A DNA stretch of 7,332 nt from a virus. Its lineage: Duplodnaviria > Heunggongvirae > Uroviricota > Caudoviricetes. Below, piece after piece: positions 3,577 to 7,332 of this stretch (position 1 is its first letter; every line of letters starts with the position of its first letter). The stretch is from the IMG/VR virus record IMGVR_UViG_3300022692_000022. The stretch is one strand, 5' to 3'. The notes beneath the pieces are model-generated. The model had not been told where the DNA came from. It did no database searches and saw nothing but the letters and a program-made list of their open reading frames with translations. The translations under genes and the position numbers were made by a program.

Positions 3577-5514
3577 GTGACTCTTAAACGGGCCTGCTCC
3601 CTGCTGACGGTGAAATCCTTCAGTGAGGATGAGCGGGTGATCACCGGGATTGCGTCAACGCCTTCTCCGGATCGGGATGGTGACATCCTGGAGCCGGAGG
3701 GCGCGGAGTTTGGCAGTGCGATTCCGTTTCTCTGGCAGCATGACCATTCCCGCCCGGTGGGGCAGTGTACGGTGCGCCGGGTCAGCGAAGGGCTGGAAAT
3801 CACGGCAACACTGGCGAAGCCCGTGCCGGATATGCCATCGCAACTGGCTGCCAGGCTGGATGAGGCCTGGGCGGCCATTAAGACCGGGCTGGTCAGGGGG
3901 CTGTCCGTGGGCTTCCGTCCTCATGAATACACCTTTCTGGACGGAGGTGGACTGCATTTTCTGCGCTGGGAGCTGATGGAGGTGTCTGCCGTCACCGTGC
4001 CCGCGAATGCGGAATGCACCATCCGGACCATTAAATCTTACGACCGCCAGTTTTCTGCCGCGTCCGGCAACCGGAAACCGGTGGTGAAAATCGCATCTTC
4101 TGCCGGCGCTGCGGCACAGTCAACAACCGTTTTTCATAAGGAAAAGACCATAATGAATATTGGCGAACAGATTAAAAGTTTTGAAAACAAGCGTGCAGCA
4201 CTGGCAGCCTCCCTTGAGGAGGTCATGACCAAAGCCGCAGAGGAAGGGCGCACGCTGGATGTGGAGGAGGAAGAGCATTACGACAACACCGCAGCGGAAA
4301 TACGTCAGGTGGATGCGCACCTGAAGCGCCTGCGTGAACTGGAAGCCGGTAAGGCCGCCACGGCGCAGCCGGTGAAACAGGCCGGTAACGGGAATGTGGC
4401 CGCGGTGGCTTCTGCGCCGGTGATCCGTGTGGAGCAGAAACTGGATAAGGGGATTGGTTTCGCACGTTTTGCCAAATCGCTGGCTGCGGCTAAAGGTGTC
4501 CGCTCTGAAGCCCTGGAAGTGGCCCGTCGTCAGTATCCGGATGACAGTCGTCTGCATCATGTCCTGAAATCGGCAGTGGGCGCGGGGACCACCACGGATC
4601 CGCAGTGGGCAGGCAGCCTGTCTGAATATCAGGAATACGCACAGGACTTTATTGATTACCTGCGTCCTCAGACCATTATCGGGCGATTTGGTCAGGGCGG
4701 GATCCCTGCACTTCGTCAGGTGCCGTTCAATATCCGTGTGCACGCCCAGGTGTCGGGCGGTGCTGCCGGCTGGGTGGGTGAGGGTAAGGCAAAACCCCTG
4801 ACGAAGTTTGATTTTGAATCCATCACCTTCAGTCATGCTAAGGTGTCGGCCATTGCGGTACTGACGGAAGAATTGATCCGTTTTTCCAGTCCGGCTGCTG
4901 ATGCACTGGTCCGTAATGCGCTGGCGGAAGCGGTGGTGGCGCGTCTGGATACAGACTTTGTGGACCCGAAAAAAGCGGCGGTGGCAGATGTCTCCCCGGC
5001 GTCCATCACCCATGATGTGAAGGGCACGGCATCAAGCGGTAACCCGGATGCGGATGCAGAGGCGGCGTTTGGACAGTTTGTGGCAGCAAACCTGCAGCCC
5101 ACCGGTGCGGTCTGGCTGATGTCCAGCACCAATGCTCTGGCGCTGTCCATGCGTAAAAATGCGCTGGGTCAGAAAGAATACCCGGACATGACCCTGCTGG
5201 GTGGCTCCTTCCAGGGGCTGCCGGTGATTGTCTCCCAGTACGTGGGTGATCAGCTGGTGCTGGTGAATGCCCCGGATATTTATCTGGCGGATGACGGCGG
5301 CGTGGCAGTGGATATGTCCCGCGAGGCATCACTGGAAATGCAGTCTGAGCCGACCGGCGACAGTACCACGCCGTCGCCGGTGGAGCTGGTTTCCATGTTC
5401 CAGACAGGCAGCGTGGCCATCCGTGCGGAGCGCTGGATCAACTGGCGTCGTCGCCGTACCGCGGCGGTGGCGGTGATCACCGGAGTGAACTATGGCAGTG
5501 CGTCCGGCGGCTGA
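3577..5514 (+). CDS. Prohead serine protease (HK97/S78-like) fused in frame to an HK97-fold major capsid protein
   Basis: GTG 3577 follows a perfect AGGAGG (3566-3571) with a 5-nt spacer; stop TGA 5512-5514. Residues 1 to about 175 carry prohead-protease motifs (FLWQHDHSRPVG with the catalytic His, GLSVGF with the Ser, EVSAVTVPAN). From the internal Met (codon 193, ATG 4153) onward the sequence looks like an HK97-family capsid protein: a coiled-coil delta-like N-terminus (MNIGEQIKSFENKRAALAASLEEV...) and then the capsid core. Confidence 0.9.
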   Translation: MTLKRACSLLTVKSFSEDERVITGIASTPSPDRDGDILEPEGAEFGSAIPFLWQHDHSRPVGQCTVRRVSEGLEITATLAKPVPDMPSQLAARLDEAWAAIKTGLVRGLSVGFRPHEYTFLDGGGLHFLRWELMEVSAVTVPANAECTIRTIKSYDRQFSAASGNRKPVVKIASSAGAAAQSTTVFHKEKTIMNIGEQIKSFENKRAALAASLEEVMTKAAEEGRTLDVEEEEHYDNTAAEIRQVDAHLKRLRELEAGKAATAQPVKQAGNGNVAAVASAPVIRVEQKLDKGIGFARFAKSLAAAKGVRSEALEVARRQYPDDSRLHHVLKSAVGAGTTTDPQWAGSLSEYQEYAQDFIDYLRPQTIIGRFGQGGIPALRQVPFNIRVHAQVSGGAAGWVGEGKAKPLTKFDFESITFSHAKVSAIAVLTEELIRFSSPAADALVRNALAEAVVARLDTDFVDPKKAAVADVSPASITHDVKGTASSGNPDADAEAAFGQFVAANLQPTGAVWLMSSTNALALSMRKNALGQKEYPDMTLLGGSFQGLPVIVSQYVGDQLVLVNAPDIYLADDGGVAVDMSREASLEMQSEPTGDSTTPSPVELVSMFQTGSVAIRAERWINWRRRRTAAVAVITGVNYGSASGG

Positions 5515-5520
5515 GTCTGA

Positions 5521-5558
5521 TAAGGAGGACGGGAGGCGTGTGCCTCCCGTAACAAGTT
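5521..5558 (+). promoter_or_regulatory. Strong Shine-Dalgarno followed by a perfect 9-bp GC-rich hairpin, then an ATG
   Basis: AAGGAGG at 5522-5528. Stem ACGGGAGGC (5529-5537), loop GTGT, stem GCCTCCCGT (5542-5550), all nine pairs Watson-Crick. Then an 8-nt spacer AACAAGTT and ATG at 5559. There is no T-run after the hairpin, so it is not a canonical intrinsic terminator. Confidence 0.4.
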
Positions 5559-5780
5559 ATGGCAAAGATCCGATATCTGCAGGGCACGCATGATGCCCGG
5601 GCCGGGGATATCCGTGATGTGGCACAGCCGTGTGCGGAGGTGCTGGTTCGCCTGGGAAAGGCGGAGTACATCACGGTGCGACGTCCGGCAGGTCAGAAAA
5701 AGAAACGTGATGCGGAGCATGGCGAATGTGGAACCTTTTACGGCGAACCCGAAAAAACCAGAAATCAGGACGTGACGTAA
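5559..5780 (+). CDS. Small hypothetical protein between the capsid and portal genes
   Basis: 73-codon ORF. The first ~45 residues look protein-like (MAKIRYLQGTHDARAGDIRDVAQPCAEVLVRLGKAEYITV) and the C-terminus is basic and low-complexity. It overlaps the predicted portal start by 55 nt in a different frame. It is preceded by the SD/hairpin element. I do not recognise the family. Confidence 0.4.
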   Translation: MAKIRYLQGTHDARAGDIRDVAQPCAEVLVRLGKAEYITVRRPAGQKKKRDAEHGECGTFYGEPEKTRNQDVT

Positions 5781-7332
5781 GAGAGGCGGGCTGGACCAGC
5801 CTGTTTCAGGCGGTGGCTGAGCCCTTTTCCGGCGCCTGGCAGCAGGGCGTGAAAGCCGATCCTGAAGCCGTCCTCTCCTTTCATGCGGTGTTTGCATGTA
5901 TTTCGCTGATATCCCAGGATATCGCCAAAATGCGGCTGCGTCTTATGCAGACGGATGCGCATGGGATACGCAGGGAAACGCGCCGGGGGGATATTGCCCG
6001 CCTCTGTCGTCGCCCCAATGCGCAGCAGAACCGCATTCAGTTTTTTGAACTGTGGCTGAACGCCAAACTGCGTCACGGCAATACGGTGGTGCTGAAAATC
6101 CGTAATGCCCGGGGGCAGATCAAAGAACTGCGTATTCTGGACTGGAACCGGGTTGAACCTCTGGTGGCGGATGACGGCGAGGTGTTCTACCGCATCACGC
6201 CGGACCGGAACTGTGGGATCACTGAGGCGGTGACGGTGCCTGCCCGGGAAGTGATCCACGATCGGTTTAACTGTTTTTTTCATCCGCTTATAGGGTTGCC
6301 GCCGGTGTATGCCGCCGGGCTGGCGGCCACGCAGGGGCATCATATTCAGGAAAATTCGACGTCTTTTTTCAGAAATGGCGGCAGGCCGTCCGGGGTGATT
6401 GAGATCCCCGGCAGTATTACGGAAGAAAATGCGAAAAAACTGAAGAGCAACTGGGACAGCGGGTATACAGGCGAAAATGCGGGGAAAACGGCCATTCTGA
6501 GCAACGGGGCAAAATACAACCCCACGACGTTTTCACCGGTGGATTCGCAGACGGTGGAACAACTGAAGATGACCGCTGAAATTGTCTGTTCGGTGTTCCG
6601 TGTCCCGGCCTACAAGATTGGCGTGGGACAACCGCCTTCCAGTGACAACGTGGAGGCGCTGGAGCAGCAGTATTATTCCCAGTGCCTGCAGACGCTGATT
6701 GAGTCCATTGAACTGTTACTGGATGAGGCGCTGGAAACGGGGGAAAACGAGAGTACGGAATTTGATGTCACCACGCTGCTGAGAATGGACAGTGAGCGGC
6801 GCATGAAAACGCTGGGGGATGCGGTGAAAAATACGCTTCTCACGCCCAATGAGGCCCGTAAACGGGAGAACCTGCCGCCCCTGGCCGGCGGTGATGCACT
6901 GTATCTTCAGCAGCAGAACTACAGTCTGGAGGCGCTGTCCCGTCGTGATGCCCGTGAAGATCCGTTCGCGTCGACCGGGAAAACGGCCTTAGCGCAACCG
7001 CCTGACGGCGCATCTGACGGTAATAAGGCAATCAGTGAAACAGAGCATGATGCGGTGAAAGCGATGTTCAGGGGGGATACTGCGAAAATGACGGAACGGG
7101 AACTGTCCATTATCCGTGCGCTGGGTGAAGAATTTTCCGCAGTGCTGGCGGATTTACAGCGCACATTTGAGGGGAAAATAGCCGCGCAGGCACAAACGTT
7201 TGAAGAAAAACTGGCTTCCCTGTCTGTGGTATTACAGAAGTGCGTGACGGGCGATGATGTGCGTCCGATGCTTGAGCAGATGGTGAAGGAGGCGGTAAGC
7301 CATATCCCTGTTCCGCGTGACGGTCGTGACTA
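5726..7332 (+). CDS. Portal protein (HK97-family-like), 3' end beyond the window
   Basis: Open frame from a stop at 5708-5710 to the window end, not in the ORF track because it has no stop in the window. First ATG is 5726, with GGAG 8 nt upstream. The N-terminus MWNLLRRTRKNQKSG...AVLSFHAVFACISLISQDIAKMRLRL, the middle FFRNGGRPSGVIEIPG and TAEIVCSVFRVPAYKIG, and the late motif TPNEARKRENLPPLAGGD match the portal pattern from memory. About 145 further helix-prone codons follow the GGD motif without a stop. The start codon is uncertain; ATG 5930 and 5945 are alternatives. Confidence 0.82.
   Translation, partial: MWNLLRRTRKNQKSGRDVREAGWTSLFQAVAEPFSGAWQQGVKADPEAVLSFHAVFACISLISQDIAKMRLRLMQTDAHGIRRETRRGDIARLCRRPNAQQNRIQFFELWLNAKLRHGNTVVLKIRNARGQIKELRILDWNRVEPLVADDGEVFYRITPDRNCGITEAVTVPAREVIHDRFNCFFHPLIGLPPVYAAGLAATQGHHIQENSTSFFRNGGRPSGVIEIPGSITEENAKKLKSNWDSGYTGENAGKTAILSNGAKYNPTTFSPVDSQTVEQLKMTAEIVCSVFRVPAYKIGVGQPPSSDNVEALEQQYYSQCLQTLIESIELLLDEALETGENESTEFDVTTLLRMDSERRMKTLGDAVKNTLLTPNEARKRENLPPLAGGDALYLQQQNYSLEALSRRDAREDPFASTGKTALAQPPDGASDGNKAISETEHDAVKAMFRGDTAKMTERELSIIRALGEEFSAVLADLQRTFEGKIAAQAQTFEEKLASLSVVLQKCVTGDDVRPMLEQMVKEAVSHIPVPRDGRD

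Follow-up and report, generated by a model that had tools for sequence, protein, structure and literature searches.

Does a long portal reading frame encode one extended protein or two proteins joined end to end, and does an altered order of head genes mean that the element carrying them is something other than a complete phage? Both questions are raised by IMG/VR virus record IMGVR_UViG_3300022692_000022, a 7,332-nucleotide stretch of Caudoviricetes DNA (the window, by which we mean the whole stretch analysed). Canonical HK97-like head modules run terS, terL, portal, protease, capsid. In the window the portal gene instead follows a protease-capsid fusion, and an earlier note, made from the letters alone, saw in this a possible capsid-forming satellite-type element. 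We consider it very probable that what the window carries is the head and packaging module of a complete lambdoid prophage from Escherichia coli that makes Shiga toxin (STEC), of the BP-4795, 2851 or 1717 type, and that its long portal frame consists of two genes, a portal and a downstream gene that we call X, joined by one extra G.

The open reading frame (ORF) that starts at ATG 5726 is, by sequence comparison, that of a bona fide HK97-family portal. It matched Pfam Phage_portal (PF04860; 6.5e-81, residues 54-382, 272 bits against a cut-off of 39) and TIGR01537 portal_HK97 (1e-104, residues 45-388, 350 bits against a cut-off of 112), and its relatives among solved dodecameric portals were 9lbn (6e-29), HK97 (8cez, 7e-20) and RcGTA (6tba, 2e-11). 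With both curated cut-offs exceeded and matches in the PDB, the assignment in the earlier note is upheld. The HK97 portal (PDB 8cez, 424 residues) aligned to residues 45-400 alone and the solved portals overall to residues 43-423, and a PDB sequence search with the full ORF gave no match to the part beyond, the extension. As had been noted, the frame is open to the end of the window: it continues to base 7332, about 147 codons past NEARKRENLPPLAGGD, and in closed genomes the full ORF has 861 codons (locus L002, 14150-16735). The description of the extension as helix-prone fits one part of it and not another, as the first ~55 residues past the motif are a Pro/Gly/Ser-rich linker and a helix of ~50 residues comes afterwards. 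A single-sequence AlphaFold2 (AF2) model of the crown and extension, of low confidence (predicted local distance difference test, pLDDT, 40), contained a helix of ~50 residues followed by a series of short helix-loop repeats and finally a beta domain. A homologue search with the extension returned near-identical E. coli fragments only. Many NCBI entries for the portal-X protein are "partial" and come from contigs of 2 kb, as if breaks in draft assemblies were frequent within this gene; a tandem repeat in it and the presence of the prophages in several copies are a likely cause.

Two genes, cut at an identical point, are annotated for this region in the records of phages BP-4795, 1717 and Lys8385Vzw. 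Alignment across this junction gave CAGGGGGGAT, with six Gs (G6), for the window and CAGGGGGAT, with five (G5), for the split phages. The G5 allele encodes a portal of 454 residues with the end ..AMFRGILKK*, its TGA stop sharing bases with an ATG (ATGA), and the second protein starts MNERELSIIRALGEEF.. from that overlapping ATG. In the G6 allele the portal and X frames merge into a single ORF of 861 residues, in which the ATG of X is codon 455.

Which arrangement is ancestral was judged from related loci, sampled as 80 viral contigs found through the C-terminal domain of X and ~130 more found through three distant family members. Their ORFs were labelled with iterated profiles, and the junction comparison covered ~80 loci. 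All outgroup junctions read ..AGAGGAT(N9)AAATGAA.., with a good Shine-Dalgarno sequence (AGAGGA) 12 nt before the ATG, overlapping stop and start codons, and portal and X in different frames. Portal and X were separate ORFs in all of ~40 loci at 62-69% X identity, in the cultured Salmonella phage FSL SP-016 and Rhizobium phage RHph_X2_26, and in nearly all of ~60 loci at 25-50% X identity. In the E. coli group AGAGGA has become AGGGGGA, creating a homopolymer, and the fused alleles have one further G. Because the outgroups carry AGAGGA and the ATGA overlap, and the G tract occurs only in the E. coli group, the junction comparison settles the question: two translationally coupled genes are the ancestral state, from which the long ORF was derived in E. 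coli.

The ancestral portal gene has ~450 codons and stops at the TGA overlapping the ATG of X; this ATGA overlap couples translation of X to that of the portal and suggests comparable amounts of the two proteins. In E. coli the Shine-Dalgarno sequence changed to AGGGGGA, and a gain from G5 to G6 shifts the portal frame into X and yields the 861-residue fusion. Of the two options offered earlier for the long frame, a C-terminal extension or a fusion to a downstream function, it is the fusion that stands, as the extension is a separate gene in diverged relatives and in the split Stx phages. A P22-type barrel belonging to the portal, with which a comparison had been suggested, is contradicted by the separate ORF in the diverged relatives (~100 loci).

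Both alleles are common. Exact-pattern counts gave 41 G6 and 76 G5 among IMG/VR contigs, and among complete E. coli genomes G6 in at least 797 (1,386 copies) and G5 on the same flank in at least 404, the latter counts being inflated by clonal sampling of O157. Among phage genome records, 2851 and YYZ-2008 have the fused form; BP-4795 has the split form, as does Lys8385Vzw, a phage induced from its host strain. Infectivity has been reported for both 2851 and BP-4795; if this holds, particles can form with either arrangement. In a further record, from 2025, of phage vB_EcoS_phi330 (L091, 3650-6392), the portal/X region lies in three ORFs and is broken at other positions, which suggests additional frameshifts or sequencing errors and not the G5/G6 polymorphism.

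Full-length X has 407 residues (44 kDa, acidic, pI 5.0) and is made up of an N-terminal helix of ~50 residues, 54-residue repeats and a C-terminal beta domain of ~150 residues. Each repeat unit comprises two 27-residue half-repeats of a helix and PxPxDGxD. The tandem repeat of the full ORF is 162 nt x 3.7 (L002, 15677-16269), and differences in X length are exact multiples of 162 nt. Near-identical E. coli prophages (L009-L047, L001, L004, L005) have from ~1 repeat, as in Lys8385Vzw (where X has 245 residues) and L028, to ~7, as in L009. The last ~50 residues of the C-terminal domain resemble CBM5/12 glycan-binding modules (CBM, carbohydrate-binding module). An AF2 model of this domain, built with a 63-sequence alignment (pLDDT 94), is predicted to have the CBM5/12 three-dimensional fold; the alignment profile matched the PDB at E = 3e-4, and Foldseek matched the fold to tail fibres of phages and to phage proteins with collagen repeats.

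An exhaustive search gave 5,630 clusters (50% identity) related to X. The best 150 relatives listed were mostly standalone proteins of 250-550 residues, and in 124 of the 124 tested among these the conserved domain lay at the extreme C-terminus. Family members have from ~2 to ~25 of the 27-residue units, and one (P0234) has a collagen-like stalk instead of repeats. The portal-X fusion P0221 comes from a different cluster; its X is 38% identical, its stalk has ~25 "PEPEPLPDI"-type units, and an internal "MLSQRDQTF.." marks the expected start of X. X did not reach the curated cut-off of any family in Pfam or NCBIfam, and neither X nor its relatives matched the MuF domain (PF04233, SPP1 gp7 / Mu F) in Pfam at E <= 0.01 or 0.001. 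The sole named family for X is phrog_1289, "portal protein", a label that many GenBank records share and that was apparently transferred from fused ORFs. The literature searched on BP-4795 and its portal, on protease-capsid fusions and on portal extensions with CBM or head fibres contained no description of X or of the portal/X junction, and no phage of this lineage was identified through the 9LBN citation.

Several observations weigh against two intact genes encoding a portal and a glycan-binding partner. The prevailing annotation is the opposite: the Prokaryotic Genome Annotation Pipeline (PGAP) calls G5 alleles "frameshifted" portal pseudogenes and G6 alleles intact (L006, 2707-5291, and RefSeq generally). 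A survey of the prophages of O157 Sakai scored the portals of Sp6, Sp9 and Sp12 as defective and that of Sp10 as intact (Asadulghani 2009), and a link between these scores and the G5/G6 state is only suggestive. The fused allele is also the commoner one in complete E. coli genomes, if by a count that O157 clones inflate, and P0221 (1,237 residues) is a portal-X fusion in another lineage, so fusion may sometimes be selected. As to X itself, the match of the E. coli protein to CBM_5_12 (PF02839) scored 18.7 bits, below the gathering cut-off of 26.2 (relatives scored 22-25 bits), and the literature searched yielded no protein-level data on X, whose virion location, stoichiometry and glycan binding are inferred. 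Set against the junction comparison, these points leave the "frameshifted" label of PGAP probably wrong, and the G5 "pseudogene" alleles are most likely two intact, translationally coupled genes.

Could the G tract instead be a functional switch, through programmed frameshifting or heritable phase variation, that supplies both free and tethered X or toggles between them? The homopolymer sits exactly at the junction, both alleles are abundant, and both states occur on four haplotypes that are otherwise identical over +-200 nt. In the split allele the sequence leading up to the stop is CTG AAA AAA TGA, and the fused allele keeps the ribosome-binding site and ATG of X. We nevertheless think a switch unlikely. 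The minority state on each mixed haplotype is a single sequence, possibly a homopolymer error, and G6 is otherwise tied to particular haplotypes, as simple inheritance predicts. Runs of five or six Gs are short for phase variation, and the outgroups have AGAGGA without a slippery run and no conserved frameshift signal. As the outgroup junctions lack a slippery sequence, neither a programmed -1 slip at CTG AAA AAA TGA nor slippage on the G run was adopted.

A still weaker case can be made for the 861-residue ORF as a native ancestral portal with a long C-terminal domain, of which the split versions would be decaying pseudogenes in defective prophages. This would agree with the PGAP flags, with the defective scores given in 2009 to several Sakai portals of this module type, with the high frequency of the fused allele and with phrog_2271, an 859-position "portal" profile. 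However, the split site is identical in all split alleles of E. coli, unlike scattered decay, and phages with split alleles include BP-4795 and the induced Lys8385Vzw. X is overwhelmingly a standalone protein, and ~100 diverged loci as well as the two cultured phages, from other genera, have two ORFs with a canonical ribosome-binding site and an ATGA overlap at the same position. The outgroup comparison largely refutes a native long portal, and we regard it as very unlikely.

An error in the window itself, with six Gs read or assembled at a locus that is really split, has a similarly slight chance. The window clearly derives from a scaffolded draft assembly, because it has a gap of exactly 100 N in terL (2586-2685) and ends inside a tandem repeat, so an error of this kind is conceivable. 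Yet an identical 48-nt G6 junction was found in 30 complete genomes (100% identity), beside the wider count of the G6 tract given above. Because it is found in complete genomes, the G6 allele is real in nature, whatever this sample holds.

Complete records also place the module in its element. Of 5,426 complete E. coli genomes, 1,252 have chromosomal prophages that match the 3.7-kb region at 99.7% identity, and the Stx1 phage BP-4795 matches it at 98.7%; for sequenced Stx phages as a group (BP-4795, YYZ-2008, 2851, 1717 and many Stx1a/Stx2c phages) identity is 96-99%. In BP-4795 and two E. coli chromosomes, the cI/cro/O/P/Q, stx and lysis genes lie upstream of the module. Directly downstream in the same three records are genes for a head-tail adaptor, a head closure protein, a gp10-like protein and a tail terminator, followed further on by the major tail, chaperone, tape measure, lambda-like tail tip and fibre genes. 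The phage is an ordinary full-length lambdoid one, whose head is HK97-like and whose tail is lambda-like. The earlier note had proposed looking for tail genes in the flanking sequence, and what was found there was an ordinary full-length phage or prophage. No complete record examined had head and packaging genes without tail genes, the arrangement of phage-inducible chromosomal islands that form capsids (cf-PICIs). A cf-PICI-like satellite, with head and packaging genes only and tails taken from a helper phage, has practically no chance of being correct: the window does hold only HNH, terminase, capsid and portal genes among head and packaging functions, and cf-PICIs carry such modules, but a complete tail module adjoins the head genes in all complete records examined, where the DNA is preceded by Q, stx and lysis genes and runs straight into the adaptor-to-fibre genes.

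The head module is already known, as part of a common, long-sequenced STEC prophage, and is neither a new element nor a satellite. In O157 Sakai, the head-gene organisation of Sp6, Sp9, Sp10 and Sp12 has been described as "slightly different" from that of lambda (Asadulghani 2009). It may be the organisation present in the window, a suggestion for which that 2009 remark is the sole source.

The unusual gene order proved to be real, the ORF map and domain scans agreeing that the portal lies downstream of the protease-capsid fusion. It is not a local rearrangement, as the earlier wording implied, but an order fixed throughout a large group of related phages: TerS, TerL, protease-scaffold-capsid fusion, small ORF, portal, X, head-tail adaptor. 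The suggestion that this order and the fusion together mark a distinct lineage was borne out, since both are conserved across the related loci examined. TerL, protease/capsid, portal, X, adaptor and closure genes were present in every locus long enough to judge, the same order being found in ~60 loci where X is just 25-50% identical to E. coli X; two loci had an insertion between portal and X. The cultured phages FSL SP-016 and RHph_X2_26 have TerL, protease/capsid, (small ORF), portal, a further gene and adaptor. As judged from these labelled ORFs, the lineage is HK97-like and widespread, spanning enterobacteria to Rhizobium plus metagenomes, and X, which almost always lies immediately downstream of the portal, is a conserved partner gene that accompanies portals of this type.

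Protease and capsid parts lie in two ORFs in the diverged loci L097, L099, L100, L104, L105, L187-L189 and L217, so the protease-capsid fusion may also vary across the lineage; these ORFs are either separate genes or frameshifts. The metagenomic phage locus L096 has two X-type genes. The one at 6146-7213 follows the portal and is without the CBM-like end, and the one at 12996-13745 carries the CBM-like domain and lies just before an adaptor-like gene. Between them are two large ORFs (721 and 845 residues), the longer of which is Gly/Ala-rich and fibre-like. A second X-type C-terminal domain is also present in the metagenomic locus L098.

Comparison with known systems helps to define what is particular to this one. 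Phages BP-4795 (Marienburgvirus) and 2851, 1717 and YYZ-2008 (Pankowvirus) share the gene order of the window, from the protease-capsid fusion through the small ORF and portal to X; they vary in G5 versus G6 and in the number of 54-residue repeats (~0.7 to 4.7 copies), and nothing essential differs. The HK97 head module (TerS, TerL, portal gp3, protease gp4, capsid gp5) shares with the window lineage an HK97-family portal, an S78 protease, an HK97-fold capsid protein with a delta or scaffold region, an HNH-associated terminase and gp6/gp7/gp10-type connectors. In the window, unlike HK97, the portal gene follows the capsid gene, protease and capsid protein are fused, and two genes are added, a small ORF and, between portal and adaptor, X. 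The fused ORF resembles P22 gp1 in that its portal bears a long C-terminal appendage, which contains a helix and would extend into the inside of the capsid. However, the P22 barrel is integral to the portal gene, whereas the appendage in the window is a separate gene in the outgroups; with its repeats and beta-rich CBM-like domain it also seems to differ from one continuous helix.

The minor head proteins SPP1 gp7 and Mu gpF likewise adjoin the portal gene downstream, and MuF proteins carry variable C-terminal cargo domains. A modular build, with an N-terminal anchor and a variable C-terminal part, would be a further likeness to X, but X resembles the MuF family neither in sequence nor by Pfam, and it has helix-loop repeats and a CBM-like tip. 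The tail fibres of Agrobacterium phages 7-7-1 and Milano, and collagen-repeat phage proteins, have a C-terminal fold like that of X, whose stalk varies in repeat number. Unlike tail-fibre genes, X adjoins the portal gene and not the tail-fibre region, and it tolerates covalent fusion to the portal C-terminus, which is expected inside the capsid. X as a simple tail-fibre gene was rejected, as its almost invariant position between portal and adaptor argues otherwise.

What might X do? It would be a virion protein, anchored by its N-terminal part and bearing a tip of glycan-binding type on a stalk that varies in length, and would partner the portal in roughly equal amounts. In solved HK97-type portals the C-terminus is in the crown and faces the capsid interior, so the fused allele would place 12 X moieties inside the head. 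Twelve copies of the 44-kDa X would take up ~1% of the capsid volume of a 57-kb phage, and internal X should therefore be tolerated; T4 portals with C-terminal green fluorescent protein fusions also assemble. Free X might still be made from the fused allele, through the retained ribosome-binding site and ATG. Native X could be an internal crown-bound protein, which is favoured by gene position, translational coupling and tolerance of fusion, or it could be an external head or neck fibre, which is favoured by fibre-like anatomy, the CBM tip and variable repeat number. A more specific reading is that X is an unrecognised portal-docked structural component, peculiar to this HK97-like lineage, at the crown inside the capsid, its repeat stalk bearing a glycan- or peptidoglycan-binding tip, with G5/G6 toggling between free and tethered X. 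The reasons for it are that fusion is tolerated and has arisen more than once, the translational coupling, and the position after the portal; we regard it as doubtful and offer it tentatively. If it were true, the toggle, which would be heritable, could change what leaves the capsid along with the DNA or what the virion displays.

The literature searched did not contain the one-base fusion of two genes, the intact "pseudogene" alleles or X as a widespread uncharacterised protein. The split alleles, marked as pseudogenes in RefSeq and perhaps scored as defective in older surveys, most likely represent the intact ancestral state, and this affects estimates of morphogenetically competent STEC prophages, Stx phages included. 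X itself is widespread (thousands of clusters), positionally conserved and mislabelled "portal protein". Inducible phages carrying either allele (BP-4795 split, 2851 fused) provide a natural experiment for locating X in the virion.

Table 1. Features of the window, with the evidence for each.
Feature	Position	Strand	Evidence or remark
TonB C-terminal-domain small protein	211-552	+	Pfam 5.8e-15
DUF3950/YlcI-family gene	684-944	-	upstream of HNH gene
HNH endonuclease	926..1291	+	Pfam HNH 7.5e-07; RefSeq label agrees
TerS, terminase small subunit	1580..2143	+	Pfam Terminase_2 1.7e-08; RefSeq label
TerL, terminase large subunit	2140..3513	+	ORF map; split by 100-N scaffold gap
Protease (S78)-scaffolding/delta region-HK97-type major capsid, single ORF, 645 residues	3577..5514	+	Pfam, TIGR, phrog_617
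Small ORF, 73 residues, phrog_829	5559..5780	+	ORF map, phrog match
Portal proper, HK97 family, ~454 codons	5726..7090	+	Pfam, TIGR01537, PDB alignments, split alleles
G6 tract at portal/X junction	7071..7076	+	alignment with BP-4795, junction comparison, exact-pattern counts
Start of gene X	7088..7332	+	ATG 7088 = codon 455 of fused ORF; truncated by window end
N-terminal helix region of X	7088-7252	+	within fused ORF
First 80 nt of the 162-nt tandem repeat array of X	7253-7332	+	window ends inside array

The remaining genes of the window (Table 1) fit a head and packaging module. An HNH gene accompanies HK97-type cos terminase. Intact terL has 1662 nt (553 residues) in closed genomes against 1374 nt in the window, so that the scaffold gap stands for ~388 nt; in a domain scan, the intact homologue (L002, 10276-11937) had TerL_ATPase and TerL_nuclease domains.

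The 645-residue ORF carries the S78 protease and the HK97 capsid domain in one polypeptide. Pfam placed Peptidase_S78 at residues 48-153 and Phage_capsid at residues 386-635, the HK97-type capsid domain spanning residues ~204-635 by Phage_capsid and TIGR01554 together, and TIGR01543 was also matched. A coiled scaffold-like stretch lies between the protease and capsid domains. NCBIfam holds a curated model, NF045541, for prohead protease / capsid fusion proteins, to which the 645-residue protein scored 53 bits over residues 48-287 only, against a cut-off of 525 bits. It shares the architecture of NF045541 members and, by these scores, belongs to a different family.

The small ORF that the earlier note placed between capsid and portal genes is present, but it does not separate them cleanly, as the E. 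coli version runs 55 nt into the portal gene; outgroup versions end just before the portal. Profile-labelled ORFs gave a homologue at the same position in most related loci. No function-bearing family was found for this ORF, phrog_829 being its sole label.

At the other end of the window, the TonB_C-domain small protein has the sequence appearance of a lipoprotein. Both it and the DUF3950/YlcI gene are annotated at the same place in related prophages.

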